Below are positions 27,717 to 44,729 of a stretch of DNA of 64,000 bases, piece after piece. Source of the stretch: an uncultured Eubacteriales bacterium (GTDB taxonomy: Bacteria; Bacillota; Clostridia; Oscillospirales; CAG-272); assembly GCA_900546695.1 (NCBI GenBank), contig URDX01000007.1, positions 331 through 64,330 on the forward strand. Direction: 5' to 3'. The notes under the pieces were generated by a model. It was not told the origin of the DNA. It did no database searches and saw only the letters and a program-made list of their open reading frames with translations. A program made the position numbers and the translations under genes. Positions within the stretch are counted from its first letter, which is position 1; the number at the start of each line of letters is the position of its first letter.

Positions 27717-27753
27717 AATCAGATTCGTATGTTTTTTCCCGTGCCGAGCCTTA

Positions 27754-28023: not shown

Positions 28024-28050
28024 CGGAATTTTTCCACATGCAATACAAAT

Positions 28051-28188: not shown

Positions 28189-28196
28189 GTCGCCTC

Positions 28197-29978
28197 CTAT
28201 TTCACATAGTTTTCCGCCTGCTTTGTAAACATCTCATAGTACTCGCCGCGGCGCGACATAAGCTCATCGTGCGAGCCCGTTTCGACGATGCTGCCGTTGT
28301 CGACAACGACTATGCGGTCCGCATCGCGGACGGTCGACAGCCTATGCGCGACCATAACGGTCGTAGTCCGATTTGCCGTGCTCATTATCAGCTTCATCAT
28401 GTTATATTCCGCGATGGGATCGAGCGCGGACGACGGTTCGTCAAGGATGAGCAAGCCGAAATCGCCCGATATGATACGCGAAAGTGCAATCTTCTGCGCC
28501 TCTCCGCCCGACACCATGATGCCCTTTTCGTCGAATTCGCGTGTCATCTCGACGTCGGCGGTGCCGTCACCCTTTTCAAGGATACCGTTCAGCCCCATTT
28601 TGGAAACGATATCGTCGACCTCTTCTCTCGAAAGATCGCCGTACATGGTTATATTGTCGATGAACGGCAGAGCGTACACATTGGCATCCTGAAAGGCAAC
28701 GCCTATCTTCCTTCTCAGCTCCAACAGATCATATTCCTTAACGGAAACTCCGTTGTACAGTATCTCTCCGCCGTTTACGTCGTACAGACGCAGAAGAAGC
28801 TTTACAAGCGTCGTTTTTCCGACGCCGTTTGCGCCGACAATCGCGACCTTCTCACCCGGCTTTATGTCAAGGCAGACCTTTGACAGTCTGAACTGCGAGT
28901 TATCATAGGAAAAATCAACGTCTCTTAAGCTGACCGAAAACGGACCGTCGGTCGGCACGGTCAGGCGCTTTTCGTCATGCGGCTCGATATCGGAGTGCAT
29001 TTCAAAAAAGGCTTTTATCTTATCGGCGTTGAGCGAGATTATCTTTGCATTCGACAGAAGCGAAATAAACTCGCTCAGCTTTGAATCAAGACGATAGAAA
29101 GCAAGTATCATCGTGATATACAGTCCGACCTCGGGAATATCGCCGTTGATTATGCTCGTTATAAGATAAACGATTATCACAAACTCCGTTATCGCCAGAA
29201 CAGCTTCCCTTACCAGTCCCAAAAGCAGTACTCTTTTTGCATATTTGTAGGTCACCTCGACCTTCGCTTCTCCGCTTCTGTCATACTCGCGAAACAGCTT
29301 GCGCGGCAGCGATGTCACCTTCAAATCGGCTGCATATTGCTTTAAATAAAAGGCGCGATGGAAATAGCCTATCTTTCGGTCTACGGGCATCAGCTCGTTT
29401 TTCTGACTGATGGAGAGCTTGTTGCTGTATTCGTTCAGAATCGCCTGAAGTATCAGCTGAACCGATTCGATAAGCAGTATCCACGGACCGATAGTCGCGA
29501 TTATGGTAAGCAGCACCGATGCGGAAAACAGATATTGAAAAAATCTGCTTATAAAATCCCGCGCTGCGTTGGTCTGACTCGTATATTCGTTTACCGCCCA
29601 TGTAAATTTGTCATAGTATTCGGGATTGTCTATGTATTTGTAATCCGTCTCGATAGCCTTCCGATAGATCTCCTTGTTCATGAGCAGGTTTATCCGAGTC
29701 TGCTTTTTCTGAAAAAACGGGTAGAAAAAGCTCGGGAACATGTGCGTCAAAAACGATATGCCGCAAACGACCGATACAAACGCCAGCATATAGCCGAGTG
29801 ACCTGCCGTCTATCAACAGATCGACCACCCGCTCGGGCAGATATACATAAATTATGTCTCCGACGGGAAACAGAATGAACGATACGACTATAGACAGAAT
29901 AAAATAGACTTTTCCGTACTTCAGATACGGCTTGCACAGCCACAGTATGTTTTTTATGTCATTGGATATGCGCTTCAT
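28197..29978 (-). CDS. ABC exporter, fused permease/ATPase (593 aa)
   Basis: TMD plus an NBD with GANGVGKTT, VSGGEAQK and LLILDEPSSALD. Confidence 0.9.
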   Translation of the reverse strand: MKRISNDIKNILWLCKPYLKYGKVYFILSIVVSFILFPVGDIIYVYLPERVVDLLIDGRSLGYMLAFVSVVCGISFLTHMFPSFFYPFFQKKQTRINLLMNKEIYRKAIETDYKYIDNPEYYDKFTWAVNEYTSQTNAARDFISRFFQYLFSASVLLTIIATIGPWILLIESVQLILQAILNEYSNKLSISQKNELMPVDRKIGYFHRAFYLKQYAADLKVTSLPRKLFREYDRSGEAKVEVTYKYAKRVLLLGLVREAVLAITEFVIIVYLITSIINGDIPEVGLYITMILAFYRLDSKLSEFISLLSNAKIISLNADKIKAFFEMHSDIEPHDEKRLTVPTDGPFSVSLRDVDFSYDNSQFRLSKVCLDIKPGEKVAIVGANGVGKTTLVKLLLRLYDVNGGEILYNGVSVKEYDLLELRRKIGVAFQDANVYALPFIDNITMYGDLSREEVDDIVSKMGLNGILEKGDGTADVEMTREFDEKGIMVSGGEAQKIALSRIISGDFGLLILDEPSSALDPIAEYNMMKLIMSTANRTTTVMVAHRLSTVRDADRIVVVDNGSIVETGSHDELMSRRGEYYEMFTKQAENYVK

Positions 29979-30110
29979 GACAAATCCCCTTTCCGATCAA
30001 TACACATGCATTTTCGCTGCTCGTATATCTTAATTCAAAACACAAGCAACTTTGGGCAAGTTTCCTGCATGTGTCAAACAGATTACTTATTTTATCATGT
30101 GATTGAATAC

Positions 30111-30184
30111 TCGCTGCAGCTCGGGTCTGCATTGCTGCGAAAGATACGAAGATGTGAAGGATATGAAAGAAAAGACAGACCCTG
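30111..30184 (-). repeat. conserved ~75-nt spacer upstream of an ABC gene (second copy at 39307-39388)
   Basis: tcgctgcagctcgggtctgcattgctgcgaaagatacgaagatgtgaaggatatgaaagaaaagacagaccct is shared almost exactly with 39307-39388. That copy has an extra gaaggatat. Confidence 0.6.
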
Positions 30185-30285
30185 CAGTCCGCCTTTTCAA
30201 ATGAATTCCGATAACTATCCTTCGCGCCGAGCACTGTTTTTACCCTTGCATTCTGCCCAAGGTATACCCGGCACTTCCGAGATTG

Positions 30286-30696
30286 TTATTCTTTAGCTTC
30301 CCGCTCGCGCGCATCCTCGTCATACTGCGCCTCGTTCGCCTCAGCCTCGCGCGCATCTCTGTCGTACTTCGCCTCGTTCGCTTCTACCTCGCGGGCATCC
30401 TCGTCGTACTGTGCCTCGTTTGCCTCAGCCTCGCGGGCATCCTCGTCGTACTGCACTTCGTTTGCCTCGGCCTCGCGGGCATCCTCGTCGTACTGCGCTT
30501 CGTTCGCCTCAACCTCGCGCGCATCTCTGTCGTACTGCACCTCATTTGCCTCAGCCTCGCGCGCATCTCTGTCGTACTGCGCTTCGTTTGCTTCTGCCTT
30601 GCGGGCATCCTCGTCGTACTGCGCTTCGTTTGCCTCGGCCTCGCGGGCGTATCTCTCGTACAACTCTTTCTTTTTTTCCGCCGTATGCATATCCAT
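30286..30696 (-). CDS. acidic tandem-repeat protein (136 aa; about eight 14-aa DAREAEANEAQYDE repeats)
   Basis: SD aggagg lies 8 nt upstream. The sequence starts MDMHTAEKKKELYERYAREAEANEAQYDEDARKAEANEAQYDRDAREAEANEVQYDRD... It has no signal peptide or TM segment. Confidence 0.65.
   Translation of the reverse strand: MDMHTAEKKKELYERYAREAEANEAQYDEDARKAEANEAQYDRDAREAEANEVQYDRDAREVEANEAQYDEDAREAEANEVQYDEDAREAEANEAQYDEDAREVEANEAKYDRDAREAEANEAQYDEDAREREAKE
30303..30645. repeat. 42-bp tandem repeat (about 8 units) inside the acidic-protein gene
   Basis: The plus-strand unit is ctcgcgcgcatcctcgtcatactgcgcctcgttcgcctcagc, with point variants. Confidence 0.8.
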
Positions 30697-30902
30697 AACA
30701 GTACCTCCTGTTTTTACCGACCGATATTCGGCTCGATATTTTTAATACGATTTTCGGCAAGGTTCTGCTGCGAGATGTTCAAACGTCACCTCGCAGCAGT
30801 TACGAATCGACGCCGATCAAGTTATACCATGCCGTTCCCGCTGTCTGCACACAGTCAAAAACGACCTCGGTATGCCGTCTCTCCGCATAAAATCCGCCAG
30901 GT

Positions 30903-31138
30903 TGATTATAGCACAACTTTGTATCTTTGTGTCAATCTTGACGCAAAACATATCAATTTTGTCCTGAAATGCATCTTTTTGTCAATGATAGAAAATTGCG
31001 TGTTTTTTCGCAGGATTTTCACACTATTTTACGGAAATTTTTGCGCGGATGCACAAGGAGAATTCCGTCTTTAAATTCCCGTCCCCGCCGCGAAAAGCGC
31101 CCGCGCAGAAAAGACAGCCTCTGCAGTCTGCCTTTTCA
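30903..31138 (-). repeat. ~235-bp cassette-junction module, copy 2
   Basis: The hairpin lies at 31108-31136. On the minus strand, TTGACA (30935-30930), a 19-nt spacer, then extended -10 TGcTATAAT (30910-30905) point at the acidic repeat-protein gene. Confidence 0.7.
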
Positions 31139-31243
31139 AACTAATTATGATAACTATCCTCCGCACCGATCACAATTTTTTCGAATCGCACATACACACT
31201 TTCTTCTGTATCTACCGATACACAAATCTATATTTTCGTTGAT

Positions 31244-32242
31244 TTAATACGATTCCCGTGCCGATATCATGTCGACGGTATCCGAAAGTATCCCTCCTTC
31301 AAGGTCGCGCATGATACGTATCTTGTCTATCATATCCGAAAGGTCCGAAGCGTTTAATGTTATAGCATAATGCAAACACCGATTCCACATTTTTTCTGCC
31401 GCAGCCGTCACCTGCTTGTAGCGCGTACTGTAATCTGCTTCAAGTCCATAATAACGCTCAAGCGTTTCAAGCCGTTCAAGCATAAATTGCTTATGTTCAA
31501 GCAACATCTTAAATGGTCGGATATCAACATCCTGTGACTCATCGAGTTTTGCAAACGTCTCAATATATCGAATGGCGCATTCATGCGCCTCTATACCGTA
31601 CACCGTAACTCCACGCTCGTCATAGTGCCACGCCGATGTCAGCAAAAGATGGTCACGTAGCTTTTCAAGAATCAGCATCGGGTTAAGTTCAAACTGTACC
31701 GACTGTGGCCGAACAGCCGCAAGCGTGCCGCAACACCCCATCCGCTCGGATGACTTTCTCGCCTTGTCAAAGCATAGCTGCGGCATTTCAAACAATGAAT
31801 ATCTCATACGCTCATCATACACAAAAATGCTGTATGTATTCTTTTCGAAGTCATACCCACAGATAAGACCGTCGTGTAGATAATGGCACATATGATATCC
31901 GGCCCTGCCCTTCATGTAATAATCATCCACTCCGCCGAAATAAACATACCACCCACGATCTATCATATTACGTATCACACGGCTGATACACCCGTCAAGG
32001 AAAGTCATAAGCAGCTGCTGACGGTCTATGTATGGATTATCTTCTATATTCGATTGACAGACATCCATGCGCAGCCTCGGCTGATCCCCCGCGAAACTCT
32101 CCGCCCGCGCCGATAAAACGAGTGAATTGTTTAAATACCAATTTCGCATACTCGGATTATTGTAAAGAATCGCTCCTATCGTACCCTGAGAATGTGATAC
32201 ACTGTAAAACGGCTTTGTTATCGGCAAACTGTTACTCTTCAT
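31244..32242 (-). CDS. hypothetical protein, 332 aa; last gene of the RiPP-like operon and paralog of 15100..16101
   Basis: Same orientation as the radical SAM genes, 158 nt downstream of them. It is followed by the module-2 terminator. Confidence 0.7.
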   Translation of the reverse strand: MKSNSLPITKPFYSVSHSQGTIGAILYNNPSMRNWYLNNSLVLSARAESFAGDQPRLRMDVCQSNIEDNPYIDRQQLLMTFLDGCISRVIRNMIDRGWYVYFGGVDDYYMKGRAGYHMCHYLHDGLICGYDFEKNTYSIFVYDERMRYSLFEMPQLCFDKARKSSERMGCCGTLAAVRPQSVQFELNPMLILEKLRDHLLLTSAWHYDERGVTVYGIEAHECAIRYIETFAKLDESQDVDIRPFKMLLEHKQFMLERLETLERYYGLEADYSTRYKQVTAAAEKMWNRCLHYAITLNASDLSDMIDKIRIMRDLEGGILSDTVDMISARESY

Positions 32243-32400
32243 TTTGTCAACTCACTTTCGTTCTTTCCATCACTTATGCAGGTAAACCCGGAATGCAAAA
32301 AAATATTCGTCTCGCGCAGATTAAAGCCACTTTCAATCTGCCTATTTGATTAATCTGTTCCAATCGGGAAAGGAATTCAAATTCTTTTCTTGATAAATGA

Positions 32401-33666
32401 CTAACGATCATCAACCATCTCCAGCATTGCATAACAAGGCTCAAAACATTTTTGACATTGTCTGATTTTAATATATTTTTTTGTGGACTCTATTATTTGA
32501 TCATTATGAAAATTTCCATGAATATGTTCATAGAGTGCATTGCTTCCCTCAACAGAGCACATCTCTTCAGGCAAAAAATGGCATGCGCGTATTTTGCCAC
32601 TGCTGGATATAACCATTGTCTCTATCCCAGACCCACATGACAAGCCTCCATTGTAAATATGTTTTTTCAAGTCGTCTTTTTTTCTCTTATATCCGTGTAA
32701 TTTCGAGGAATATGAAATTTGAATATCCAACTCATCCTTGTTTTCTCGACGCAATCTAGAAATTTCGGAAATCGCCATCTTAATTTTTTCTTTTAAAGCA
32801 TTGTTTTGATATATAGCTTCGGCTCGTCCGTAATTATCTGCAAACCCTATGATCAATCGATCTGGGTGTAACCTCTTAGCGGTATCTACAAATTCATCAA
32901 TACGATCAATTGTTGATTCACTTAACGTTAATGACAAATGTACCGAAATACCGATTTCTCGAGCAAAATCGATTGACCTCTCCAAGTTAGAATAACCATT
33001 AGCAGCCCCTGTCATTCTTTTGTATTCATTATCGTCCACCCCATACAATGAGAATTGAATTAAATACAATTTACTCAAAGACGAGGAATGAATACGGAAT
33101 TTCCACAATCGGCTCCCATTTGTAATCATTGTGAGGCGAGGTACTTTATCGGCATAAATGTCAATATACTCAATCAAATGATTGTGTAATGTTGGCTCTC
33201 CTCCGGTAAATGTCACATGTTCAACTTTGGTATCAATAACACCTATTATTTTCTCCATATCACCATCGGATATATACTTTCCCGTTGTAACCGCGGATTT
33301 ATAGCAAAAAGGGCAACGGTAATTGCAAGCTGATGTCAGTTCTATTGCAATTTGTTTCGGATAATATAATCCTTTTTCGCCCCAAAAAGTAATATTTTTA
33401 TGACTACGGCACCCCTTTGTCATAAGAACTCCGCTTTGAACAAGCCTTTTTATTCTATTCTCAACATTTTCTTCGCATTTTGTCGGTTGTGCTTGCGTCA
33501 AGCAATTTGCAATCGTGCGATTTCCATCACATAGCAGCAATATACTTATATCATCCCGATCTAGATATGCTATTGATTCGCCATAATAATCTGCTATACA
33601 ACCATCTCCGAAATAATATAGTTTTACGTTATCCCTCACTCCTATATAATAATCATAATTAACCAT
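32401..33666 (-). CDS. radical SAM peptide-modifying enzyme with an N-terminal RRE/PqqD-like domain and a reduced SPASM/twitch C-terminus (421 aa)
   Basis: The CX3CX2C motif is ACNYRCPFC at about residue 114. The N-terminus (DDISILLLCDGNRTIANC..RIKRLVQSGVL) is PqqD-like. C-terminal cysteines are SCGSG..GKIRACHF..CQKCFEPC. The gene overlaps the upstream rSAM gene by 8 nt. Confidence 0.85.
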   Translation of the reverse strand: MVNYDYYIGVRDNVKLYYFGDGCIADYYGESIAYLDRDDISILLLCDGNRTIANCLTQAQPTKCEENVENRIKRLVQSGVLMTKGCRSHKNITFWGEKGLYYPKQIAIELTSACNYRCPFCYKSAVTTGKYISDGDMEKIIGVIDTKVEHVTFTGGEPTLHNHLIEYIDIYADKVPRLTMITNGSRLWKFRIHSSSLSKLYLIQFSLYGVDDNEYKRMTGAANGYSNLERSIDFAREIGISVHLSLTLSESTIDRIDEFVDTAKRLHPDRLIIGFADNYGRAEAIYQNNALKEKIKMAISEISRLRRENKDELDIQISYSSKLHGYKRKKDDLKKHIYNGGLSCGSGIETMVISSSGKIRACHFLPEEMCSVEGSNALYEHIHGNFHNDQIIESTKKYIKIRQCQKCFEPCYAMLEMVDDR

Positions 33667-35080
33667 ATGATTCGTGATATTTCTCCTTTATTGAAATTTC
33701 TTTCGCTAATCTTGCGTATAAATTGTCATCGTATGTTTGCATATTCAAGCATAAAACTAATGAAATATTGATAATACTCCTCTGTAATTCACAAAATTCA
33801 TTGTCAGGGTGAGTTATGTCACCATTTTTCATTAGTGAATTATAATAACAATCCCCTCCGCACAAATATCTTATATCGCAATCTTTACATTGTTCGATGC
33901 TGTCAACGGTTATACCTTCAAAAAATTTAAGATTAACTTTCTTTGATGCCAAATCACCAATTATAAAGTCTGAATATCCGACAAGACTATCACATGGATA
34001 AATAGTCCCATCCGGGCAAATTGTCATTTTATTGATTCCTGCATTGCACCTTTGCCAAACTAGACTTCCAAGAATAATTCTCTTAATCAATTGTCCAAAT
34101 TGATCATTATCATTAATAATCATTCTGAGGAAGGTTAAATCTTTCTCCTTAAATGTTGCCAGTAAAAACTTTGATAATTTTTTATACTCACAAACAATTT
34201 TCTCAATACAATATTCTCCTTTGCTACGCACTAGACGTATCTGCACACTTTTAAATCCTAAACTATACAAATGATTAATTATACTAACAAAATCACAATT
34301 TTCGTTTGTTGCTGCACACAAGCCCCATATATGTTTAAATTTTTTGCTAACATTTTTATTACTTTGTATAAGCTTTATCCCCTTAACCACAGTGTCATAC
34401 GTACCTCTCCCATCAGCAAATACTCTGTTAGAATCATTATCGTCTTTTTCACCATCAAGGCTTATACCTATAGACACATTATGAGCACTTAAATATTCGA
34501 TTATTTCGTCAGTTAAAAGCGAGGCATTTGTACACAACCATATGGATATATTTTTCCCGGTTTGAGCACTAATGCTCTCACAATATTCAATAGTTTCTCT
34601 GATGATTGGGAAGCCCAACAACGGTTCGCCACCGCTCACAAAATCTATTCTGTATTGTTTCGCGTTCGGAAAAAAGTCATAAAAAAAGCAAGACAACATT
34701 TTCAACAAATTTTCTTTAGTAAATGCCCTTTCAACGCCGCCAAAGCAATCACCATGATTTCCAAAGCAATATCTACACCTAAAGTTACAACTATACACAG
34801 GGGCAAATGACAAATATGCAACGTCATTTTGAAAAATATTTTTCTTGACAATAGTATAATATTTTCGAGAAATCATACCGCAACATATTAATTCTTCAAT
34901 ATATTCATTTTCCTCATCATTCAATACTTGCCCATAAAGATATTTTTTTATTATAAAATATATTCTTTTAGTCAGTTGTACAAGCGCCCCATTTGTCAAA
35001 TTATACATATAGAAATCTTGATTATAAGAAAACAAATAATAGTTGTCTTTTAAATCATCGTTATTATTAATATACTCCAT
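33659..35080 (-). CDS. radical SAM/SPASM peptide maturase (473 aa)
   Basis: Start trimmed to the ATG at 35080 (MEYINNNDDL), with SD aggtga. The CX3CX2C motif is SCNFRCRYC at about residue 98. GGEPLL is present. The SPASM region is CNAGINKMTICPDGTIYPCD and CKDCDIRYLCGGDC. Confidence 0.85.
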   Translation of the reverse strand: MEYINNNDDLKDNYYLFSYNQDFYMYNLTNGALVQLTKRIYFIIKKYLYGQVLNDEENEYIEELICCGMISRKYYTIVKKNIFQNDVAYLSFAPVYSCNFRCRYCFGNHGDCFGGVERAFTKENLLKMLSCFFYDFFPNAKQYRIDFVSGGEPLLGFPIIRETIEYCESISAQTGKNISIWLCTNASLLTDEIIEYLSAHNVSIGISLDGEKDDNDSNRVFADGRGTYDTVVKGIKLIQSNKNVSKKFKHIWGLCAATNENCDFVSIINHLYSLGFKSVQIRLVRSKGEYCIEKIVCEYKKLSKFLLATFKEKDLTFLRMIINDNDQFGQLIKRIILGSLVWQRCNAGINKMTICPDGTIYPCDSLVGYSDFIIGDLASKKVNLKFFEGITVDSIEQCKDCDIRYLCGGDCYYNSLMKNGDITHPDNEFCELQRSIINISLVLCLNMQTYDDNLYARLAKEISIKEKYHESYG

Positions 35081-35381
35081 TTTGACCGTCACCTGCCTTA
35101 TTATCGACGATTCGTTTTGAATCCAACAGATAATCATATAGGTCTTGGATAGTGTTGATTTCAATATCGAATTCAAAAGTAATATCATACAATTCTTCTA
35201 CTCGAACAATCAATTCAACAAAATCTATGGAAGACAAATCCAAACTATCCGTGCCAACTCCATAGCCAAGATGAGTATTAAGAGTAATTGGCATCCATAA
35301 ATTATCCACTTCAAATATTTTCTTTAATATTGACTCAATATCAATTAAAAAATCCTCAACCTGAACCACGTTATTATCCAT
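35067..35381 (-). CDS. acyl carrier protein-related protein (104 aa)
   Basis: SD aaggtggag. The sequence LGYGVGTDSLDLSSIDFVELIVRVEELYDITFEFDI resembles ACP helix II. The gene overlaps the rSAM start by 14 nt. Confidence 0.7.
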   Translation of the reverse strand: MDNNVVQVEDFLIDIESILKKIFEVDNLWMPITLNTHLGYGVGTDSLDLSSIDFVELIVRVEELYDITFEFDIEINTIQDLYDYLLDSKRIVDNKAGDGQNGVY

Positions 35382-35465
35382 TGCTCCACCTTTATTTTAT
35401 ATACTTCATAAACCCATACTGTTCATCCGGATATGAAAAAATTGTTTAATATTAACATTAGTAAT

Positions 35466-35524
35466 ATTCCCCCTTCAAATTAAGAGAATAATATGTACTC
35501 AACTTTAATTTTTGAAGGGGGAAT
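35466..35524 (-). promoter_or_regulatory. strong stem-loop between the precursor-peptide gene and the ACP-like gene
   Basis: A 14-bp stem, attcccccttcaaa (35466-35479) with tttgaagggggaat (35511-35524), encloses a 31-nt loop. No T-run follows, so it is not a canonical terminator. Confidence 0.6.
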
Positions 35525-35578
35525 GTCAGCGAACATGGAATCAGTCATTAATAACATTTGACTGTTTATTCATTCCCG

Positions 35579-35695
35579 TTAGCATTTCTTATACCCGGCT
35601 GCATGCTTCGTACTCCCGGCGCAACAACAATGTGCAACAATCACAATTTCCTTAAGAAGTTTCTTGGAAATCGGTCTGCCCTTTTTGGTCTTCAT
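35579..35695 (-). CDS. candidate RiPP precursor peptide, 38 aa, Cys-rich
   Basis: Not in the track because it is under 60 aa. The SD is aaaggaggt, 7 nt upstream of the ATG (35695). Translation gives MKTKKGRPISKKLLKEIVIVAHCCCAGSTKHAAGYKKC*. It lies between the peptidase-like and ACP-like/rSAM genes in the same orientation. Confidence 0.7.
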   Translation of the reverse strand: MKTKKGRPISKKLLKEIVIVAHCCCAGSTKHAAGYKKC

Positions 35696-35814
35696 ACTCT
35701 AAACCTCCTTTCGTAACCTTTTATGTCAATCGATTTCCTGCCTTTTAAGGTTAAACCGATATAACACGCCAATCTGTAACAAATTTACACAACTGTATCC
35801 GGAGAATTTTAATA

Positions 35815-36084
35815 TTACTCAATTACTCTTCCGATAATTTTATCTACACGAACAGCAAAGCTATCCGGTTCGAGACAATTGTCGCCCTTTGTTTTTATAA
35901 ATGAATAACCATTTCTTGTGTTAATCACCTTAATGATTCGATGACAAATAATCAATTCACCGACTTTAAATACAACAATATCATCCGGATACACTTTCCC
36001 GTCTTTTACAGCTTCCACTTTATACATGTTGCCATTCTGCAGCGTTGGCAGCATGCTATCCCCTTTCGCAATGATATACACCAC
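35815..36084 (-). CDS. minimal TM-less S26B (SipW/ER-type) signal-peptidase-like protein (89 aa)
   Basis: The boxes GDSMLPT, ELIICHRII and TKGDNCLEPD match the remembered Ser/His-type signal peptidase motifs (SGSMxP, xHR, TKGDNNxxxD). GTG start with SD gaggga. There is no hydrophobic segment. Confidence 0.7.
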   Translation of the reverse strand: MVYIIAKGDSMLPTLQNGNMYKVEAVKDGKVYPDDIVVFKVGELIICHRIIKVINTRNGYSFIKTKGDNCLEPDSFAVRVDKIIGRVIE

Positions 36085-36110
36085 TATCCCTCACATTTCG
36101 CAAAAATGGA

Positions 36111-37703
36111 TCAATTTTTGGACTCAATCAGCACACGTTTATCTGCGCACTCCGTAAGCGACGGCCGATGTGTTATAAACAAAATCGTTTTGTCGCTGTC
36201 TTTAATATACCTCTCGACCGTTTTTATCGCCCTGGCATCCAGATTATTTTCCGGTTCATCCAGAAAAACAACGGGCGAATCCTTAACAATTGCACGGATA
36301 AGTGATATCTTTTGTTTTTCGCCGCCCGACAGCTCATTACCGCCGCAGGTGACCGCCCTATCATAGAGATAAGATATTTCAAATCTGTCGAGCAGCATTT
36401 TCACGGTCGAATCATCTATTGAGGGATTTGCGATTTTAATATTATCAGGAACGCTGCCGCTGAACAGATACGGATCCTGCGGAGCATAGGCAACCATCGC
36501 ACGCAGATCCGTGATGCTGAGATCCGACATACTTTTGCCGCTCAAGCTTATACTTCCCTTATAATTATCAATAAACCCCAGCAAGATTTTTAAAAGCGTA
36601 GACTTTCCGCTTCCGTTGTCGCCGCATATTGCGACCTTATCTCCTGCGTTCACGAGAAAAGACAGGGATTTTATCACCTGCTTATCCCCATAAGAAAAGC
36701 TCAGCTGCGAAACGGAAAGGTCGTTAAACTCACCGATATGCTCGCCGCCCGTGCTTTCCTCATCGTTATAAAAGAATTCGAGCCTTTCCGCGATATTGTC
36801 TATGATTGGGATCTCACGAACGATCTCGTTTATTCTTCCGATAATGGAATTAAGCACGGAATAATATCCCATCATCGCGGTAATTGCACCCAAAGAAATA
36901 TCGCCCCTCGCCGCAAGATATGTACCTACGAACAGAACAACGAGCAGACAGCCGTTATCCACAAATGAGTTTACGAATTTAGAGCCGAGGGAAAGACGCA
37001 TGCTCTTTTTCTGCGTGTTTTGAAAAAACGAGCGATAGAGCTTATCAAGGAGCCCGAGATACTTATCCCCCACCCCCATAAAAACTACATTGCACGGTCT
37101 TTCGCATATCTCCGTCTCATAGGAATGAACTCTCGATGTATACTCTCTATCCTCCTTGTGATATTTTCGCACATACTTATTGGTCAGTATGGGAACAACA
37201 AATTTCACCAGCGAGACCGACACCGTTATAACGGTATAGCTAATGCTTATGCGAGTGACGTTTATCAAAAGATAGATCAGCGTAGACGGTATGGCAAGTC
37301 CCATGGATATAACATTATTAAGCTCCTGCCACAGATCATTCGGATCCTCATCGAGCCTCACAAGCATATCACCCGCATCTATTTTTGAAGCGGATACAAA
37401 ATTCTTGCCGAGAAATTTGGATAATACCGTTCTGTCATGCGCCAGAGAATTCCTGACGAGAATTATGTCCTCGACATAATAGACGGCGGGTATGACCAAA
37501 ACCGTTATAACAAGAGCCCGCGCTAATGAAAGGACATTTTCAAGCCCGGCGGGAATATCGAGCGAAAAGACGGCATCGGTGAATTTTCCGAACACCCCCG
37601 AAGAAAACACGGACAAAACTCCGCTCAAGCTCGTTATTATCGTGTCAAGTAAAATCGGAAACCACACAAATTTAAAGACATCTCTGTATATTTTACTTTT
37701 CAC
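36111..37703 (-). CDS. ABC exporter subunit, CydC/CydD-like (530 aa)
   Basis: TMD plus an NBD with GDNGSGKST, LSGGEKQK and VVFLDEPENNLD. Overlaps the upstream ABC gene by 11 nt. Confidence 0.85.
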   Translation of the reverse strand: MKSKIYRDVFKFVWFPILLDTIITSLSGVLSVFSSGVFGKFTDAVFSLDIPAGLENVLSLARALVITVLVIPAVYYVEDIILVRNSLAHDRTVLSKFLGKNFVSASKIDAGDMLVRLDEDPNDLWQELNNVISMGLAIPSTLIYLLINVTRISISYTVITVSVSLVKFVVPILTNKYVRKYHKEDREYTSRVHSYETEICERPCNVVFMGVGDKYLGLLDKLYRSFFQNTQKKSMRLSLGSKFVNSFVDNGCLLVVLFVGTYLAARGDISLGAITAMMGYYSVLNSIIGRINEIVREIPIIDNIAERLEFFYNDEESTGGEHIGEFNDLSVSQLSFSYGDKQVIKSLSFLVNAGDKVAICGDNGSGKSTLLKILLGFIDNYKGSISLSGKSMSDLSITDLRAMVAYAPQDPYLFSGSVPDNIKIANPSIDDSTVKMLLDRFEISYLYDRAVTCGGNELSGGEKQKISLIRAIVKDSPVVFLDEPENNLDARAIKTVERYIKDSDKTILFITHRPSLTECADKRVLIESKN

Positions 37704-39282
37704 GTATGACCCGTCCTTCCCCTACCTCATAAACCGTTTTCGCAAGATCCGTCAAACTTTCCTCGTGAGTTATGATGATCGTTCCGCGTGTGCGCTCAGA
37801 GAGCAGCCTGCGAAGGATATCACAGCCGTTTTTATCAAGAGAATTTGTCGGCTCATCCAGAATCATCAGTTGTGGGTCGCATGCAAACGCCAGTGAAAGA
37901 AATACCTTCTTTCTCTCTCCGCCCGACAGACTCCCTATCGTCTGTGACAATATACCCTCGCCGATATTAAACATACCTAAAACAGCGAACGCCGTCTCTG
38001 ATGCAGCCTCATCGAGAACCATGCCAAACAGCTCCCCGGGTGTCAGATTATACGGCGGATCTTCCTGCGTCAGATAGAATATCTTGTGCGGAAAGTTGTC
38101 GTAACCGATATCCTTCGGCGCTACTCCGCCGACGCATATATCTCCCCCATCGCAGTTGACTATCCCCAGCAGCAGCCTTACTATTGTGGATTTTCCCGCG
38201 CCGTTCACGCCCCTGAAAACCGTAATGCCATCCGAGTCAATGCTAAGATCCGCTTCATTCAATATCTGCTTATCGCCTAAAGTACAAGAAACCTTCTTAA
38301 ACCGTACGTCTGTATTATCCGACAGCAGGTCGTTCTTTTTGCTTTCCGCGCCGAATCGCGACATTCTTTTCTCTGCAACACGGACAAGCTCAAATTCGGG
38401 AATCAGACCGAACATCGAGCTTACAGATGAATACAGACTTCCCGACAAAGCGATAGCCTGTATCCCGGCTTCGACGGTAATGTGCTTCGTAATAACAAAC
38501 AGCCCGACAATGGCATATGTACCGTATGTCAAGGCATTTGAAACAACGCCCGATATGGCAGTCTCCGTGCGATATGTCGCCTGAAGCCTATCGGCGATCT
38601 TTCGCATTTTGCGATGCAGAAGCTTCATCCGCCCCATAGACCATGCGGTAAGATCAAATAATTTTATCGTTGCAAAGCCGTTGTAACACTCCAATGCGCA
38701 GTTTGAAATCTGACCTTCCGTCTCCTTGCAGCTCGTATCCAGCTTCCCGCAAAAGAACCTGATATACAGCGGCGGAATGATCTGAATAACCGAAACGCCC
38801 AGCATTATGCCCGCAAGTATCGGAAATTGAATACACAAATATGTCAGATAAGCCACTATCGTGACAACGGTGGAAATAAGAGAAGGGTACAGATCTACGT
38901 ACTTAGATGTGACCTTCCCGAAATCGCTGTTTAATACTACCCCGGCTTCGCCTGCCGTAGAACGATACAAAAAATCAAGCGGAGATGATAAGTACCGTTT
39001 GTATAAAAGCATCTTGCATGTATGAAGAGAATTTGAGACCTTTTTTTGATACAGATAACCCGTAACAAGGTCAAATATATTAAACACCAAAAGAATCGCT
39101 AAAATCGTCAGGCTGTTGTTTATAACCTCGCGATAATCACCGCGTGTGGCGGAATCCACCACATCAGCCATCAATCTTGCATTTACTATCCCGATCGGCA
39201 CTGACACAAGCTTTAATAATGTCGATGCAACGCTCACGGGCTTTAAAACAGAGAAAAATATATCTTTTGTTCTTTCCATCAA
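37693..39282 (-). CDS. ABC exporter subunit, CydC/CydD-like (529 aa)
   Basis: TMD plus an NBD with GVNGAGKST, LSGGERKK and LMILDEPTNSLD. Confidence 0.85.
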   Translation of the reverse strand: MMERTKDIFFSVLKPVSVASTLLKLVSVPIGIVNARLMADVVDSATRGDYREVINNSLTILAILLVFNIFDLVTGYLYQKKVSNSLHTCKMLLYKRYLSSPLDFLYRSTAGEAGVVLNSDFGKVTSKYVDLYPSLISTVVTIVAYLTYLCIQFPILAGIMLGVSVIQIIPPLYIRFFCGKLDTSCKETEGQISNCALECYNGFATIKLFDLTAWSMGRMKLLHRKMRKIADRLQATYRTETAISGVVSNALTYGTYAIVGLFVITKHITVEAGIQAIALSGSLYSSVSSMFGLIPEFELVRVAEKRMSRFGAESKKNDLLSDNTDVRFKKVSCTLGDKQILNEADLSIDSDGITVFRGVNGAGKSTIVRLLLGIVNCDGGDICVGGVAPKDIGYDNFPHKIFYLTQEDPPYNLTPGELFGMVLDEAASETAFAVLGMFNIGEGILSQTIGSLSGGERKKVFLSLAFACDPQLMILDEPTNSLDKNGCDILRRLLSERTRGTIIITHEESLTDLAKTVYEVGEGRVIREK

Positions 39283-39306
39283 AACCGCCTTTGAAATATG
39301 GATATC

Positions 39307-39388
39307 TCGCTGCAGCTCGGGTCTGCATTGCTGCGAAAGATACGAAGATGTGAAGGATATGAAGGATATGAAAGAAAAGACAGACCCT
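39307..39388 (-). repeat. conserved spacer, copy 2 (see 30111-30184)
   Basis: Near-identical to 30111-30184, with a 9-nt internal duplication. Confidence 0.6.
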
Positions 39389-39481
39389 AAAGCCCACCTC
39401 TTTATTCGGATAGCAAGTCTCCGTGCAACCCCAGTTATTTTTTTATATCGCCATGTATTTGCCTAAGGTACATTTCACGTC

Positions 39482-39608
39482 TCAGAATACATCTTTCTTA
39501 GCTTCCCTTTCACATGCATATTTTTTGTACAGCACCTCGCTTACTTCCGCTTCCCGTGCAAAATCTCTCGTACAACTTTTCATTTTTCTCCTTCGTATGC
39601 TTATCCAT
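39482..39608 (-). pseudogene. frameshifted single-repeat homolog of the acidic repeat protein
   Basis: The same SD and start context as 30696 (aggaggtactgttATGga). It reads MDKHTKEKNEKLYER and then, after a T-run (atttt), the homologous frame DFAREAEVSEVLYKKYACEREAKKDVF* is +1. The in-frame product is only 32 aa (39510..39608). Confidence 0.5.
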
Positions 39609-39821
39609 AACAGTACCTCCTACTTTTGCAGACCGATACACGGCTCGGTATTTTTTATACGTTTTCGGCAATGTTCTGTCGCGAAATGAGCAAATGTCAC
39701 TTCGCAACGGTTACGAATCGACGCAATTATCAGGCTATAACTTTCCTCACGATTCACACTTGCGCTCTGCCACAGATGACTTGGAAGGGTATCAAATCCC
39801 CGTATTCATTTCGTTTGATTT

Positions 39822-40054
39822 ATTATAACACAATTTCAGTTTTTGTGCTGATTTTGGCGTGAAACGTATCAATTTTGTCCTGAAATGCACCTTTTTGTAA
39901 ATCGCAGGAAATCGCGTGTTTTTTTTACGGGATTTTCACACCATTTTATAGGAATCTTTGCGTAGCTGCGAGAGGAGAATTCCGTCTTTAAATTCCCCTC
40001 CCCGCTGCGAAAAGCGCCCGCGCAAAAAAGCCAGCCTCTGCAGCCTGCCTTTTC
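39822..40054 (-). repeat. ~235-bp cassette-junction module, copy 3
   Basis: The hairpin lies at 40024-40053. The extended -10 TGtTATAAT (39827-39822 on the minus strand) points at the frameshifted repeat-protein gene and the RiPP-like operon. Confidence 0.7.
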
Positions 40055-40151
40055 AGAACGCCTTCAACAGCGGTATTATTTTTCCTCGTCGGCGTTATAC
40101 TCCCCCGTCGCTGTTATGCTTCCGCATCGCCGTTATACTTTCACGTCGCCG

Positions 40152-40754
40152 TTATACTTCCTCGTCGTACAATCTTTTCTTTATCTCAAACAGTCTCTTA
40201 TACTCGCCGTCGGCTTCCATCAATTCCTTATGGGAGCCCTCTTCGCAGATAACTCCATCCTTCAAGTGAATGATTTTATCGGTCGTGACAGCGCATGAAA
40301 GGTTATGCGACACGATAATACAGGTTCTTGTTTTACTTATATCGCGTATCCCGCGAACGACCTGTTCTTCCGTTTCCGTATCAATAGCGCTTGTCGGCTC
40401 ATCAAGGATTATCACACCCGAATCCTTGATGATGGATCTGTAGAGCTTTATTCGCTGCTTCTCCCCTCCCGACGGTTCTACGCCGTTTGGATACAGATAT
40501 GTCAGCAATACGGTATCTAAATGATTGGGATATTTATTTACAATGCTGTCAAACCACTCATAATCTCCCGCCTTATACTTAGCTTGCAGCCCTTCATCTC
40601 CGAAAAACACATTCTCTCTGAGCGTTATCGGCAGGAGATTGCAATCCTGAAACATACTTCTATCATGTGCCATAACAAAAGCAAAGCATTTATCGCTGAT
40701 TATCTTGACGGGTATCATCGGCTTCGTATTTGCGCGCTTGGCAAATTCGGCCAT
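40152..40754 (-). pseudogene. 5'-truncated ABC exporter gene (C-terminal part of the NBD only)
   Basis: The 200-aa ORF has the signature PSGGEKQR, Walker B VIILDEPTSAIDTETE and the H-loop IIVSHN. It lacks Walker A and the whole TMD. Confidence 0.7.
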
Positions 40755-41110: not shown

Positions 41111-42934
41111 ATGAAGAAGAAAAAAGAAGAAAGAGAATTAAAGCGCGGGCGGATATTTGCGAACAACATTTTCGCCTTAAAGCTGCTTTGGAAGGCATGT
41201 CCCGCGAAGATGGTATTCACCGTCGTGACCACCCTTACCGGCATTGCTCTCGGGCTTGCGTCGCTGTATATAATCCGCTATGCGACGAACACCGCAGATG
41301 CAAACGGTGAGTATCTCAGTGTGCTTGCATGGCTGCTTGTGCTTGTCGGCGCGTATCTGGCAGACAGCCTTTTCGGTCAGCTTGCGGGCATATATATTAC
41401 GCCGCAGTTCGATGAGCAGGTAAACAAGCGGCTCAAACGAAAAATTCTCGAGAAAGCAGCCGAATGCGATCTCGAATGCTACGAAAACCCCGAGTTTTAC
41501 GAAAAGTACACCTGTGCGATGATAGAGGGTCCGGGGCGGTGCGACGCCGTTTTCGGCTCGGTTATCGGGCTGATACGGGATATCATCGAGTTTTTCGGCG
41601 CGGGACTGATAGTTATTCTCGCCGACCCGATCATGCTGATATTTGTGGTCATACCGTTCGTTTTCGGCTTTCTCAAGGCGGGCGGACAAAAGACGGGCTT
41701 CAAGCTGCACAACGAAAAAATGAAGGTCGAGCGCCGCAAGGCTTATCCCGTCCGCATCTTTTATCAGAGTGCATATGCAAAGGAGCTGCGCACCACCGAT
41801 ATTTCCAAGCCGATTATAGCGCGGTACAGAGAGGCAATCTCCGATTCCGTAAAGATATATCACAAATACGGCACAAAGCTCGCACTCTACTATGCGTTTG
41901 TCGATATCGTTGACATGTTTCTCGGCGATTACGGAATCTACATTTATATAGCATGGCGGGTGCTTGTATCAAAAACGATGCCGCTCGGCGACTGCTTTGT
42001 CAGCGTCATAGCGATAAATACCGTTCTCGGCTCGGTCTATTCCCTTCTCGATTCGTCGATGATCTTCTACGAGCATGCGCTGCATGTGGAAAACATGCGT
42101 TTCCTGCTCGACTACAAGCCGAAGATAGCCGTAAACAAGGACGCACCCGCGGCGCACGCAGGGGATATCGTGCTCGACCATGTATCGTTTTCCTATTTCG
42201 GCTCGGAGGAAAAAGCGCTCGACGATGTCTCACTGACGATACACAAGGGCGAAAAGCTCGCTGTCGTCGGGCAAAACGGCGCGGGAAAAACGACCCTGAC
42301 AAAGCTGCTGCTGCGTCTGTACGACCCGACGGCGGGCTCGATATCATTGGACGGCAAGGATATACGCGATGTCGAGCTGACGTCATATCGCGACCTTTTT
42401 GCGACCGTATTGCAGGACTACCGCCATTTCTCGATGTCGGTAAAAAGCAATATTCTGCTCCGACGCGAGCAGGACGGAGATGATGCCGTCGTCGCGGACG
42501 CACTGCGCAAAAGCACGGCGGATTCGTTCGTTGATGCCTTTCCGAACGGCGCGGATTCGATTCTCGACCGCGAGTTTGACGACAACGGAGAGGTCCTTTC
42601 GGGCGGGCAGGCGCAGATGATTTCCATCGCCCATGTCCATGCGAAGGGCAGCCCGATCGTCATCCTCGACGAGCCGTCGTCCGCGCTCGACCCCATCGCG
42701 GAGCAAAAGATGTATGAAAATATGATGGCATCCGCGGAGGGAAAAACGGTAATCTTTATCTCTCACAGAATGTCTGCGTGCACCCTCGCCGACAGGATAG
42801 TCGTGCTCGATCACGGAAGGGTGCTCGAGTGCGGCAGCCACGCCGAGCTGATGAAAAAGAACGGAAGATACTCGGAGCTGTTCCGCATGCAGTCGGAGCA
42901 CTATATCGAAGGCGAAGCGGAGGAGGCGTGCTGA
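41111..42934 (+). CDS. ABC exporter, fused permease/ATPase (607 aa)
   Basis: TMD plus an NBD with GQNGAGKTT, LSGGQAQM and IVILDEPSSALD. Confidence 0.9.
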   Translation: MKKKKEERELKRGRIFANNIFALKLLWKACPAKMVFTVVTTLTGIALGLASLYIIRYATNTADANGEYLSVLAWLLVLVGAYLADSLFGQLAGIYITPQFDEQVNKRLKRKILEKAAECDLECYENPEFYEKYTCAMIEGPGRCDAVFGSVIGLIRDIIEFFGAGLIVILADPIMLIFVVIPFVFGFLKAGGQKTGFKLHNEKMKVERRKAYPVRIFYQSAYAKELRTTDISKPIIARYREAISDSVKIYHKYGTKLALYYAFVDIVDMFLGDYGIYIYIAWRVLVSKTMPLGDCFVSVIAINTVLGSVYSLLDSSMIFYEHALHVENMRFLLDYKPKIAVNKDAPAAHAGDIVLDHVSFSYFGSEEKALDDVSLTIHKGEKLAVVGQNGAGKTTLTKLLLRLYDPTAGSISLDGKDIRDVELTSYRDLFATVLQDYRHFSMSVKSNILLRREQDGDDAVVADALRKSTADSFVDAFPNGADSILDREFDDNGEVLSGGQAQMISIAHVHAKGSPIVILDEPSSALDPIAEQKMYENMMASAEGKTVIFISHRMSACTLADRIVVLDHGRVLECGSHAELMKKNGRYSELFRMQSEHYIEGEAEEAC

Positions 42935-42935
42935 A

Positions 42936-44729
42936 ATGAAAAAGAAAACATCGCTTAAAAGCACCCTTTCCGGCAACCTGTTTCTGCTGAAATATATATG
43001 GAAATTTGCGCCCTCATACCTCTTCTGGGAGGTGCTGAATGCGCTAATTCAGGGCGCTTATATCTCCATCATTAAGGTCTACCGTAAGCTGTACTACGAC
43101 TCGCTTTCCGACGGGCGGCAGTTTATATACGTGCTCGGCATGTGCCTCACCGTGTTTGCGGTATTTGTATTCGTTGAAATATTCACCGGCTATTACATGC
43201 AGGTCCTGAGAGAAAGCAAAAAGCAGAAACTGAAGCTCGGAATGACCGTCGATCTGTTCCGCGCGGCGCAAAGGGTCGACCTCGCCTGCTACGATGATAC
43301 CGAGTTCTACAACGACTTTATATGGTCGATGAGCAACGGCGACGGTCGCGCGACCGCCATGGTCGATTCGCTGATGAAAACGCTCAACCGCTCGATAGTT
43401 CTTATCACCTCGGCGGCGATAATGGCGACGATAAACCCGTGGATATCATTGATAGCGGCGCTCGTCGCCGTCGTGTCGGTCATCCTGAACAGAAATACGA
43501 TGCTGCTGTCGGTCAGACGCAACGTCGCATTGAATCCGCTCACCAGAAAAAGCTCCTACTATGAGCGCATCTTTTCACAGCCCGATATGGCAAAAGAGGT
43601 CAGGATAAGCCATATCTCGGACGTTGTTCTCGACGATTACGAAAGCAATATCGGCGAGATACGCAAAACGGAGCAGAAGTTCAATCGTGAGGGCGTAAAA
43701 TACAGCCTCCCGGGTGCGCTCATAGAGCGTCTGATGGAGCCAGTAGTGTACATTATCGTGCTCTACCTCATCATGGTGAAAAAGACCGCGTCGATAGGCG
43801 ACCTCGCCATCGTCGTGACGACGTTCAAATCCATAAAATCCTGTCTATCCGACCTGCTCCAATCGCTCACCTCGTTTGAGGAGCATGCACTGTTTACCGA
43901 AAAGGTCAGAACATTGCTCGAATATAAGCCCAAGCTGAAAAGCGGCGAGCTGCCCGTGCCTGAGTTTGAAAGCCTCGAGCTGAAAAACGTCTGCTTCTCG
44001 TATCCGAACGGCGAAGAGGTGCTGCACGACGTCAGCCTGTCGGTGCGGCGCGGCGAACGGATAGCATTTGTCGGCTATAACGGCGCGGGAAAATCAACGC
44101 TCGTCAAGCTGATACTGCACTTTTATGAGCCGACATCGGGCGTAATACTGCTGAACGGAACCGATATCCGCGAGTATGATGCGGAAGCATACCGCCGCAG
44201 CATCGGCTCGGTCTTTCAGGATTTTCAGATCTACGCCCTCTCCCTGTCCGAAAATGTTCTGTGCGATGAGGTCAGCCCGTCGGATTCGGATGCCGTTTCC
44301 GATGCCCTGAGAGCCGCATCGTTCGGCGAAAAGCTCGCGCAGCTGCCCGAAGGGCTGAATACCGAGCTGACACGCGAATTTTCGGACGACGGAACAAACC
44401 TGTCGGGCGGAGAAGCGCAGAAGGTCGCCATCTCGCGAATATTTGCGCGCCCCTACCGGCTCATTCTCATGGATGAGCCCTCCGCATCGCTCGACCCCGA
44501 AGCGGAAAACGAGATAAACGGAAATATCAGCCGCCTCGGCACGGATAAAACCGTCGTGTGCATCTCGCACCGCCTCTCCACCACACGCTATTCCGACCGC
44601 ATCTACGTCTTTGACGGCGGTCGCCTCGCGGAGGAGGGTACGCATCAGCAGCTGATGTCGCTCGGCAGAAGGTACGCGGAAATGTTTGAAGCACAGGCGA
44701 AGAAATATACCGCCGCCGAAACAGGCTGA
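42936..44729 (+). CDS. ABC exporter, fused permease/ATPase (597 aa), likely heterodimer partner of 41111..42934
   Basis: Starts 2 nt after the upstream stop. The NBD has GYNGAGKST, LSGGEAQK and LILMDEPSASLD. Confidence 0.9.
   Translation: MKKKTSLKSTLSGNLFLLKYIWKFAPSYLFWEVLNALIQGAYISIIKVYRKLYYDSLSDGRQFIYVLGMCLTVFAVFVFVEIFTGYYMQVLRESKKQKLKLGMTVDLFRAAQRVDLACYDDTEFYNDFIWSMSNGDGRATAMVDSLMKTLNRSIVLITSAAIMATINPWISLIAALVAVVSVILNRNTMLLSVRRNVALNPLTRKSSYYERIFSQPDMAKEVRISHISDVVLDDYESNIGEIRKTEQKFNREGVKYSLPGALIERLMEPVVYIIVLYLIMVKKTASIGDLAIVVTTFKSIKSCLSDLLQSLTSFEEHALFTEKVRTLLEYKPKLKSGELPVPEFESLELKNVCFSYPNGEEVLHDVSLSVRRGERIAFVGYNGAGKSTLVKLILHFYEPTSGVILLNGTDIREYDAEAYRRSIGSVFQDFQIYALSLSENVLCDEVSPSDSDAVSDALRAASFGEKLAQLPEGLNTELTREFSDDGTNLSGGEAQKVAISRIFARPYRLILMDEPSASLDPEAENEINGNISRLGTDKTVVCISHRLSTTRYSDRIYVFDGGRLAEEGTHQQLMSLGRRYAEMFEAQAKKYTAAETG

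Follow-up and report, generated by a model that had tools for sequence, protein, structure and literature searches.

An anchor-less S26B-type peptidase of 89 residues as a candidate leader peptidase in a radical SAM peptide cassette

The 64,000-nucleotide stretch of DNA analyzed here (the window) encodes on its minus strand, at 35815..36084, an 89-aa serine peptidase of the S26B type that has no membrane anchor, recognized from its ORF, profile matches, family conservation, AF2 model and fold match to SEC11A. It probably serves as a leader peptidase dedicated to the neighbouring Cys-rich precursor, within a family of radical SAM peptides. The original prediction, made from the DNA letters, had proposed this role from gene position and the junction in the precursor, and support for it now comes from synteny with the precursor across loci, a shared aliphatic-x-Ala junction, exporters that lack C39, and fusions of S26B-like domains to ABC exporters elsewhere.

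Of all steps in RiPP biosynthesis, removal of the leader is the hardest to predict, and heterologous production often fails at this point. If the proposed role is correct, a tiny soluble protease making a traceless cut after aliphatic-x-Ala would represent a new leader-peptidase family and a practical tool, and the catalytic core of signal peptidases would work as a free cytoplasmic enzyme of fewer than 90 residues. A core of that size bears on the evolution of S26 peptidases and on their minimal catalytic unit. The cassette itself marks an uncharacterised peptide family of gut-associated Clostridia, with an N-terminal aromatic-CCC, a C-terminal Cys, two radical SAM enzymes and an ACP-like protein.

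A minimal S26B core without a membrane anchor

The peptidase gene runs from a GTG start at 36084 to 35815 and translates as MVYIIAKGDSMLPTLQNGNMYKVEAVKDGKVYPDDIVVFKVGELIICHRIIKVINTRNGYSFIKTKGDNCLEPDSFAVRVDKIIGRVIE, in which all three motifs named in the original prediction, GDSMLPT, ICHRI and TKGDNCLEPD, are found. The S26B hallmarks are the Ser of the SM.P box, a His rather than a Lys in the HR box, and a GDN..D box with two Asp residues; the corresponding codons are those of Ser10 (AGC, 36057-36055), His48 (CAT, 35943-35941), Asp68 (GAC, 35883-35881) and Asp74 (GAT, 35865-35863). Only 9 residues precede the catalytic Ser, and the C-terminus of the protein lies directly past the core. A GAGGGA ribosome-binding site stands ahead of the GTG, and the ABC gene on its upstream side stops 27 nt short of that start codon. 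Because an in-frame TGA can be read three codons 5' of the GTG, an N-terminal extension or anchor is impossible.

The peptidase has a single hydrophobic stretch, residues 36-54 (IVVFKVGELIICHRIIKVI; Kyte-Doolittle 19-residue mean 1.76), which is predicted to form two strands (E36-41 and E44-55) and aligns with the soluble core of SEC11A. A transmembrane helix was considered for these residues and rejected, since they make up a conserved β-hairpin that carries the catalytic His48 and are strands in the AF2 model. With the stop codon upstream and this hairpin as the only hydrophobic candidate, the claim that the protein lacks a transmembrane anchor is borne out; taken strictly, this missing anchor is the one defining feature that keeps the protein out of S26B.

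Fold and family assignment

To which branch of the signal peptidase fold does such a small protein belong? Pfam reports Peptidase_S24 (PF00717) at 4.8e-6, with 26.7 bits against a gathering score of 23.3, together with a weak match to Peptidase_S26; the PF00717 match reflects clan-level similarity. The top NCBIfam model is TIGR02228, the archaeal/ER-type signal peptidase I (1.7e-13), for which the score of 50.7 bits falls 1.15 bits under the curated cut-off of 51.85, and the alignment pairs residues 7-87 with model positions 37-118, about 82 of the 158 positions. Next comes the NCBIfam SipW model at 3.8e-10, with a much poorer match (0.003) to the Lys-type model of bacteria. Searched against the PDB, the single sequence finds SEC11A (1.7e-4), and the family profile finds SEC11C (1.1e-8) and SEC11A (3.8e-8). 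The Ser, His and Asp boxes of these two proteins line up with those of the window protein, such that S10, H48, D68 and D74 correspond to Ser56, His96, Asp116 and Asp122 of SEC11A. Alignment with Sec11, one of the comparisons put forward with the original prediction, therefore places S10 and H48 at the catalytic Ser and His positions of SEC11A/C.

The AF2 model, built from a 22-sequence family alignment, is compact (pLDDT 92.6, pTM 0.81). Its best Foldseek match in the PDB is SEC11A (7p2p_A; TMq 0.81, rmsd 2.3 Å, probability 1.00). The model covers no more than roughly half of the SEC11A chain of that entry (TMt 0.51), so that catalytic activity in a core this small is a prediction. SipA ranks second, followed by SEC11C, SpsB and LexA/UmuD. 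In the comparison among S26A, S26B and S24 folds SEC11A is thus at the top with LexA/UmuD behind, and profiles and structure together favor the predicted His-type, SipW/Sec11-like S26B assignment over both S26A and S24. The family matches lie well outside what chance would produce.

A word-indexed search for the peptidase recovered 21 clusters, every one of them 82-106 aa long, and an exhaustive profile search of 1.84 billion representatives returned a tight group of about a dozen representatives of 88-125 aa above 100 bits, below which runs a continuum of 11,080 S26/S24 matches. The clusters are 45-70% identical and alike in their short length. In the family alignment of 22 sequences, M11, P13, I46, C47, H48, R49, K66, G67, D68, N69, C70 and D74 are invariant. 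S10 is missing solely from P0020, whose gene was called from an internal ATG and is thereby truncated; an in-frame TTG upstream restores MKIRTNGKSM. The catalytic Ser and His, whose conservation in orthologs the original prediction had singled out as decisive, are accordingly retained, H48 in 22 of 22 sequences and S10 in every full-length member. CHR and GDNC are family-specific motifs, with VHR and GDNN in their place in SEC11/SipW; one metagenomic member has SHR instead of CHR. Judged by these alignments, the mini-peptidases, about 82-125 aa long, make up a small but conserved family and are not gene fragments. One of its members carries the NCBI name 'signal peptidase I'. The contig of P0036 measures only 1.2 kb, and its gene context is uninformative.

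The cassette and its synteny

The operon in the window is read from the minus strand in the order ABC, ABC, peptidase, precursor, ACP-like, radical SAM/SPASM, second radical SAM and BtrH_N-like. The ABC exporter half-transporters, one of 530 aa (36111..37703, with its transmembrane region from residue ~19) and the second of 529 aa (37693..39282), match ABC_membrane and ABC_tran only, and Pfam and NCBIfam detect no C39 or other peptidase domain in either of these ~530-aa proteins. Downstream of the precursor, the 104-aa ACP-like protein (35067..35381; Pfam PP-binding 1.1e-4, with matches to NCBIfam ACP models) has S51-I52-D53 at the phosphopantetheine-site position, invariant in 8 loci. It is followed by a radical SAM/SPASM maturase of 473 aa (33659..35080; Radical_SAM 1.4e-14, SPASM TIGR04085 57 bits against a cut-off of 27), with its start placed as in contig L072, which is 100% identical (the ORF as found mechanically reaches 35188) and with its best equivalogs, of nif11-type, SCIFF and PapB, all under their cut-offs. 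The second radical SAM enzyme, of 421 aa (32401..33666; Radical_SAM 2.8e-18), has weak MoaA/PqqE/AlbA-type matches that are likewise all under cut-off. The last gene encodes a divergent 332-aa protein of a BtrH_N/C39-like family (31244..32242), with homologues in L001, L003, L007 and L010, and is a frequent but not constant member of the cassette. A PqqD-type recognition protein was not detected among the proteins of the window cassette by Pfam or NCBIfam.

The peptidase gene lies directly upstream of a CC-containing precursor of 32-51 aa in 12 of the 12 loci with enough flanking sequence, namely the window, L001/L002, L003/L004, L005/L006, L007, L008, L009, L010, L035, L037, L038 and L045, so that the adjacency originally described in the window holds in all of them. 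The core order of peptidase, precursor, ACP-like, radical SAM/SPASM and radical SAM recurs in L001/L002, L003/L004, L005/L006, L007, L008, L009 and L010, with the two ABC genes before or after the core depending on the locus and with exporters lacking C39; peptidase identity across the L001-L010 cassette loci is 45-65%. The full cassette is thus present in 8 long-flank contexts, and the peptidase-precursor pair in 4 more short metagenome contigs, as a RiPP-type unit. By gene content, the cassette qualifies as a RiPP cluster in the generic sense, a short precursor kept as a unit with modifying enzymes, a predicted protease and an exporter.

No second cassette occurs within the window, in which only the BtrH-like gene and the generic ABC genes have paralogues. 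The scanned neighbours of the cassette are ABC transporters and a chaperonin. A direct repeat of ~1 kb flanks the cassette, with its left copy at 30110..31180 and its right copy at 39306-40055; the repeat segments are 82-94% identical with a spacing of ~8.9-9.2 kb, and the left copy holds a 42-nt tandem array (30247-30724). GC content is 31-37% in the biosynthetic core and 50% in the whole window. The low GC and the flanking direct repeats are consistent with a mobile cassette. A promoter and terminator scan of 31000-39800 gave counts near shuffle expectation.

The precursor and its junction

The 38-aa precursor, MKTKKGRPISKKLLKEIVIVA followed directly by HCCCAGSTKHAAGYKKC, is encoded at 35579..35695 (minus strand), 119 nt downstream of the peptidase gene on the same strand, with the ribosome-binding site AAAGGAGG 8 nt ahead of its ATG. 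It matches no NCBIfam or Pfam model; the assignment comes from the ORF and from homologous precursors at the same position in the 12 loci. Directly past its stop codon lies a strong RNA hairpin (35470..35522, minus strand): the fold of 35440-35585 on that strand has an energy of -37.5 kcal/mol (z = -4.5), and 0 of 200 shuffles were as good. The hairpin is probably a transcript attenuator or stabiliser.

Where would the leader end? An alignment of 13 precursors from the 12 loci shows Ala at -1 and Ile, Leu or Val at -3 in 13 of 13, a variable -2 (Val, Glu, Asp, Tyr or Ile), His, Tyr or Phe at +1 (His in only 2 of 13, otherwise Tyr or Phe), and Cys at both +2 and +3 in all 13. In the window KEIVIVA precedes HCCCAGSTKHAAGYKKC, in L010 QKVLVA precedes YCCCGTKRTASSSC, in L009 MEVVEA precedes YCCTKTTKNVKSPHAVSATGC, and in L007 KLVDA precedes YCCTKTT. 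The IVIVA-H junction singled out in the original prediction is therefore one instance of an aliphatic-x-Ala conserved at the same place in every precursor. Substrates of type I signal peptidases are conserved at -1 and -3 and free at -2, with P1 and P3 inserted into pockets and P2 turned to solvent. As read from the alignment, the junction pattern matches exactly what would be expected of a signal-peptidase recognition site under this -3/-1 rule. The predicted cut in the window falls between Ala21 (35635-35633) and His22 (35632-35630), an exact position that we hold with somewhat less confidence than the leader-peptidase role itself. Alternatively, it may be the radical SAM enzymes that recognize the aliphatic-x-Ala-aromatic-CC motif.

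The leaders of the precursors are charged or amphipathic 17-23-mers without a Sec-type h-region. The substrate would therefore resemble a signal peptide at the cleavage site only, and leaders of this composition argue against a Sec role for the peptidase. None of the 13 leaders has a GG; they end in aliphatic-x-Ala.

Relatives in other cassettes and exporter fusions

A scan of genome contigs found one true family member (L010), the other 23 loci being distant relatives. Distant relatives on these contigs are anchor-less S26B-like domains in other peptide-maturation cassettes. L016 encodes a 111-aa stand-alone S26B-like protein (TIGR02228 1e-22), with PqqD, radical SAM and HprK-like genes ahead of it and an ABC exporter behind; L013 encodes a 207-aa S26B-like protein beside ScmC and ScmF of a SynChlorMet cassette; and in L012 the S26B-like domain is the C-terminal part of a 296-aa protein in a PqqD/two-radical SAM cassette. 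These three anchor-less relatives score 57.6-80.7 against TIGR02228, above its cut-off. The domain is fused to GNAT in L023. In L011 it is N-terminal to an ABC exporter within a protein of 751 aa, is 46% identical to the query, and keeps SM.P, ICHR and GDNC; the S26B-like domains of P0115 and P0137 are likewise fused N-terminally to ABC exporters. The ABC exporter fusions in the representative library measure 739 aa and 748 aa, and an HprK-like and an NTP_transf_5 fusion of S26B-like domains are found there too.

In the standard topology of ABC exporters, any domain that precedes the transmembrane domain lies in the cytoplasm. From this topology and the N-terminal ABC fusions, we infer that this S26B-like clade acts in the cytoplasm on exported peptides. 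Judging from gene context, anchor-less S26B-like domains appear to be a recurrent, uncharacterised module of radical SAM cassettes, and a broader use of the fold.

Proposed mechanism

How might a peptidase core without a membrane anchor mature a Cys-rich peptide? The predicted catalytic set consists of Ser10 as nucleophile, His48 as general base and Asp74, with Asp68 and Arg49 as a putative structural pair. In the pathway that we propose, the two radical SAM enzymes, perhaps with the ACP-like protein, would first modify the core. The C-terminal aliphatic-x-Ala of the leader would then lie as a β-strand in a signal-peptidase-type cleft, with the -1 and -3 residues in the S1 and S3 pockets, and cleavage after Ala21 would release a free core beginning H/Y/F-C-C-C. 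The product would be exported by the two peptidase-less ABC half-transporters, the mini-S26B peptidase standing in for the C39 domain that classical ABC exporters with a built-in peptidase carry.

A wider reading is possible, and we put it forward tentatively, as something we would doubt sooner than expect: anchor-less S26B-derived domains may be a widespread but hitherto unrecognised class of leader peptidases that act on RiPPs in the cytoplasm with signal-peptidase-like -3/-1 specificity, either alone or fused to ABC exporters as non-C39 'PCATs', and leader removal may bare an α-amine beside the Cys triplet for further chemistry. One option after leader removal would be N-acylation of that amine, dependent on the ACP-like and BtrH-like proteins. 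Another would be an N-terminal metal-binding site like the His-Cys nickel hook of NiSOD. Mature NiSOD has a His-Cys N-terminus, a start shared by the predicted core in the window (HCCC), the other precursors having mostly Tyr or Phe at +1.

Alternative explanations

Could another enzyme remove the leader? The BtrH_N/C39-like protein of ~330 aa, or a host protease, might do so, leaving the mini-S26B protein as a leader-binding chaperone or an exporter docking factor, comparable to the catalytically dead SipA in pilus assembly. SipA is indeed the second-best structural match, the cassette has no PqqD-type protein, and homologues of the 332-aa protein match BtrH_N and Peptidase_C39_2. A pure binding role, however, leaves the invariant catalytic residues of the S26B protein unexplained. 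Pfam BtrH_N is matched by 3 of 5 members of the BtrH-like family (best 1.2e-5), with no Pfam match for the window copy, and the family has a single invariant His but no invariant Cys or Ser. A BtrH-like homologue was not found in the available sequence of L005, L008 and L009, and in the window a 79% paralogue stands outside the cassette at 15100-16101, beside an unrelated ABC gene. The BtrH-like protein is unlikely to be the leader protease because it has no conserved nucleophile, was not found in the available sequence of some cassettes and has a paralogue outside the window cassette; we hold this division of labor, taken as a whole, to be unlikely.

The peptidase might also be a true protease with a different substrate, such as an AgrD-like autoinducer precursor, or serve in immunity by degrading re-imported peptide. 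For S. aureus, it was at one time suggested that AgrD is trimmed by SpsB, a signal peptidase of type I. An agr-like module of AgrB, LytTR response-regulator and histidine-kinase genes flanks the cassette in L001, L005, L007 and L008, and these neighbours suggest quorum-sensing control of the peptide family. Three deletion variants from metagenome contigs (L071, L073 and L074) also keep an identical peptidase and two ABC genes while lacking the 5.7-kb segment equivalent to window 30049-35722, and with it the precursor, the ACP-like gene, both radical SAM genes and the BtrH-like gene; persistence of the peptidase without its precursor cuts slightly against the leader-peptidase reading. On the other hand, the loss is best read as a recent deletion because the flanks are 99.6% identical, and the junction fits the -3/-1 rule. 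AgrB was not called in L003, L004, L006 or L009, whereas the precursor is present in 12 of 12 loci, and within the window the cassette has only ABC and BtrH-like paralogues, with ABC transporters and a chaperonin as neighbours. An agr-related substrate is less likely because AgrB adjoins the cassette only sometimes and the precursor always, and a different substrate, of either kind, seems to us distinctly improbable.

That the ORF is a functionless, decayed fragment of a membrane (SipW-like) signal-peptidase gene, as its partial TIGR02228 coverage (37-118 of 158) and a score just under the cut-off might suggest, is effectively refuted by family conservation, with at least 21 clusters alike in short length, 45-70% identical and invariant in their catalytic boxes, and it is further at odds with a gene order kept across divergent loci and a compact, confident AF2 model.

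Comparison with known systems

The original prediction had held that this fold is not known to be used for leader removal in characterised RiPP systems. In keeping with that statement, a review from 2023 on the proteases that remove RiPP leaders treats Cys proteases, metalloproteases and, among serine proteases, types S8 and S9 only, and the terms 'signal peptidase', S26, S24 and SipW never occur in it (PMC10885120). Our full-text literature search found no report of an S26-type leader peptidase in a RiPP pathway, which is absence of evidence because its coverage was incomplete. Some sactipeptide papers use 'signal peptidase' loosely, and a 2011 paper places a signal-peptidase gene near the SCIFF cluster of C. 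thermocellum (PMC3132745).

The cassette resembles the radical SAM RiPP clusters that form thioethers (sacti-/ranthipeptide and SCIFF/PapB-type) in its short Cys-rich precursor, SPASM radical SAM enzyme and ABC export. Unlike them, it adds a second radical SAM enzyme, an ACP-like protein and the S26B peptidase, and its maturase is far under the equivalog cut-offs, scoring 181.9 against 425 for TIGR03974 (SCIFF), 179.5 against 340 for NF047865 (PapB) and 117.9 against 500 for TIGR04068 (CcpM).

Among peptidases, the window protein shares its fold and the SM.P, HR and GDN..D boxes with the S26B signal peptidases (SEC11A/C, archaeal signal peptidase I and Bacillus SipW), and its predicted substrate likewise has a small -1 and an aliphatic -3 residue. 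It differs from them in having neither an N- nor a C-terminal membrane anchor, in its CHR and GDNC motifs, in the short, charged or amphipathic, non-Sec leader on which it is predicted to act, and in the location of its gene in a radical SAM peptide operon. The S24 proteins, represented by the C-terminal domains of LexA, UmuD and lambda cI, fall into one clan with the window peptidase and resemble it in their β-barrel core; unlike these, the window peptidase has a His rather than a Lys base and lacks both the N-terminal domain and an internal Ala-Gly site for self-cleavage, and its structural and profile matches to S24 are weaker than those to SEC11.

The nearest functional precedent, a partial one, is SodX, a soluble dedicated S26 peptidase whose gene adjoins that of its substrate. 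SodX is the small S26-type peptidase of Ni-SOD maturation, encoded beside its single substrate, a cytoplasmic protein from which it cleaves a short pro-sequence at the N-terminus (PMC3919588, PMC4284471). The SodX model TIGR02754 does not match the window protein at E<=0.1, no Ni-SOD gene (sodN) occurs among the scanned neighbours in the window, and, unlike that of SodX, the proposed substrate of the window peptidase is a RiPP-like peptide.

The C39 PCATs have the same role as the one proposed here, leader removal in the cytoplasm coupled to ABC export, by means of an unrelated fold: C39 is a papain-like Cys protease that recognizes a Gly-Gly motif, whereas the window protein is a Ser/His peptidase for which an aliphatic-x-Ala motif is predicted. 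The window peptidase is, unlike the C39 domain, a separate protein, and its relatives in L011, P0115 and P0137 occupy the same N-terminal position on the exporter as C39 does in the PCATs.

Genomic variation and context of the cassette

What does natural variation say about the 38-aa precursor cassette? In three metagenome contigs (L071, L073 and L074), window position 35723 is joined directly to 30048, and the intervening sequence of the window, 30049-35722, is missing. These contigs retain the same peptidase as the window, and their flanks are 99.6% identical to it; the genes that they lack are those for the precursor, the ACP-like protein, the two rSAM enzymes and the BtrH-like protein, and the left repeat is absent as well. 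The intact form occurs in contig L072, which is 100% identical to the window. The presence or absence of 30049-35722 is a natural deletion polymorphism.

Direct repeats of approximately 1 kb, at 30110-31180 and 39306-40055, bracket the cassette, with segments that are 82-94% identical. Inside the left copy lies a 42-nt tandem unit in eight copies (30247-30724), the product of which would be a EANEAQYDEDAR-like repeat. The GC content of the biosynthetic core (32401-36084) is 31-37%, lower than in the ABC genes belonging to the cassette (44-46%) and in the window as a whole (50%), and this difference suggests that the core was horizontally acquired or is of mosaic origin.

ABC exporter genes of the heterodimer type are unusually dense around the cassette, with at least nine genes encoding proteins of approximately 600 aa each in 21487-29978 and 41111-51001; a truncated ABC ATPase fragment is found at 40152-40754. 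A 333-aa paralogue of the cassette's BtrH_N-like protein, 79% identical to it, is encoded on the plus strand at 15100-16101, and downstream of it is a 606-aa ABC exporter (16227-18047). No rSAM, precursor or peptidase genes are present near this paralogue.

Directly 3' of the precursor stop codon, on the minus strand, is a strong RNA hairpin (35470-35522; -37.5 kcal/mol for a 146-nt context, z = -4.5) that is not followed by a T-run; such a hairpin is typical of the attenuators or stabilisers downstream of RiPP precursor genes. The ACP-like protein (35067-35381, minus strand) has a Ser-Ile-Asp that is invariant in all 8 loci aligned and sits where ACPs have the phosphopantetheine serine of the DSLD motif. 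The cassette contains no recognisable acyl-loading enzyme.

Relatives of the peptidase and comparison with SEC11

Anchor-less S26B-like domains also occur as parts of fusion proteins, in which the partner is an ABC exporter, an HprK-like domain, an NTP_transf_5 nucleotidyltransferase or a GNAT domain (loci L011, 8878-11133, and L023, 5504-6412; protein representatives P0115, P0137, P0071 and P0061). The gene context was examined at two of these, L011 and L023, and PqqD/rSAM-type cassettes surround the fusions at both. We found no descriptions of these fusion architectures in the literature searched.

Two cysteines, C47 in CHR (35946-35944) and C70 in GDNC (35877-35875), are invariant across the 22-sequence peptidase family alignment and are shared with the ABC-fused relative at L011, although one metagenomic member of the family has SHR in place of CHR. 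Unlike the peptidase family, the ER-type signal peptidase SEC11 has valine and asparagine, respectively, in these positions.
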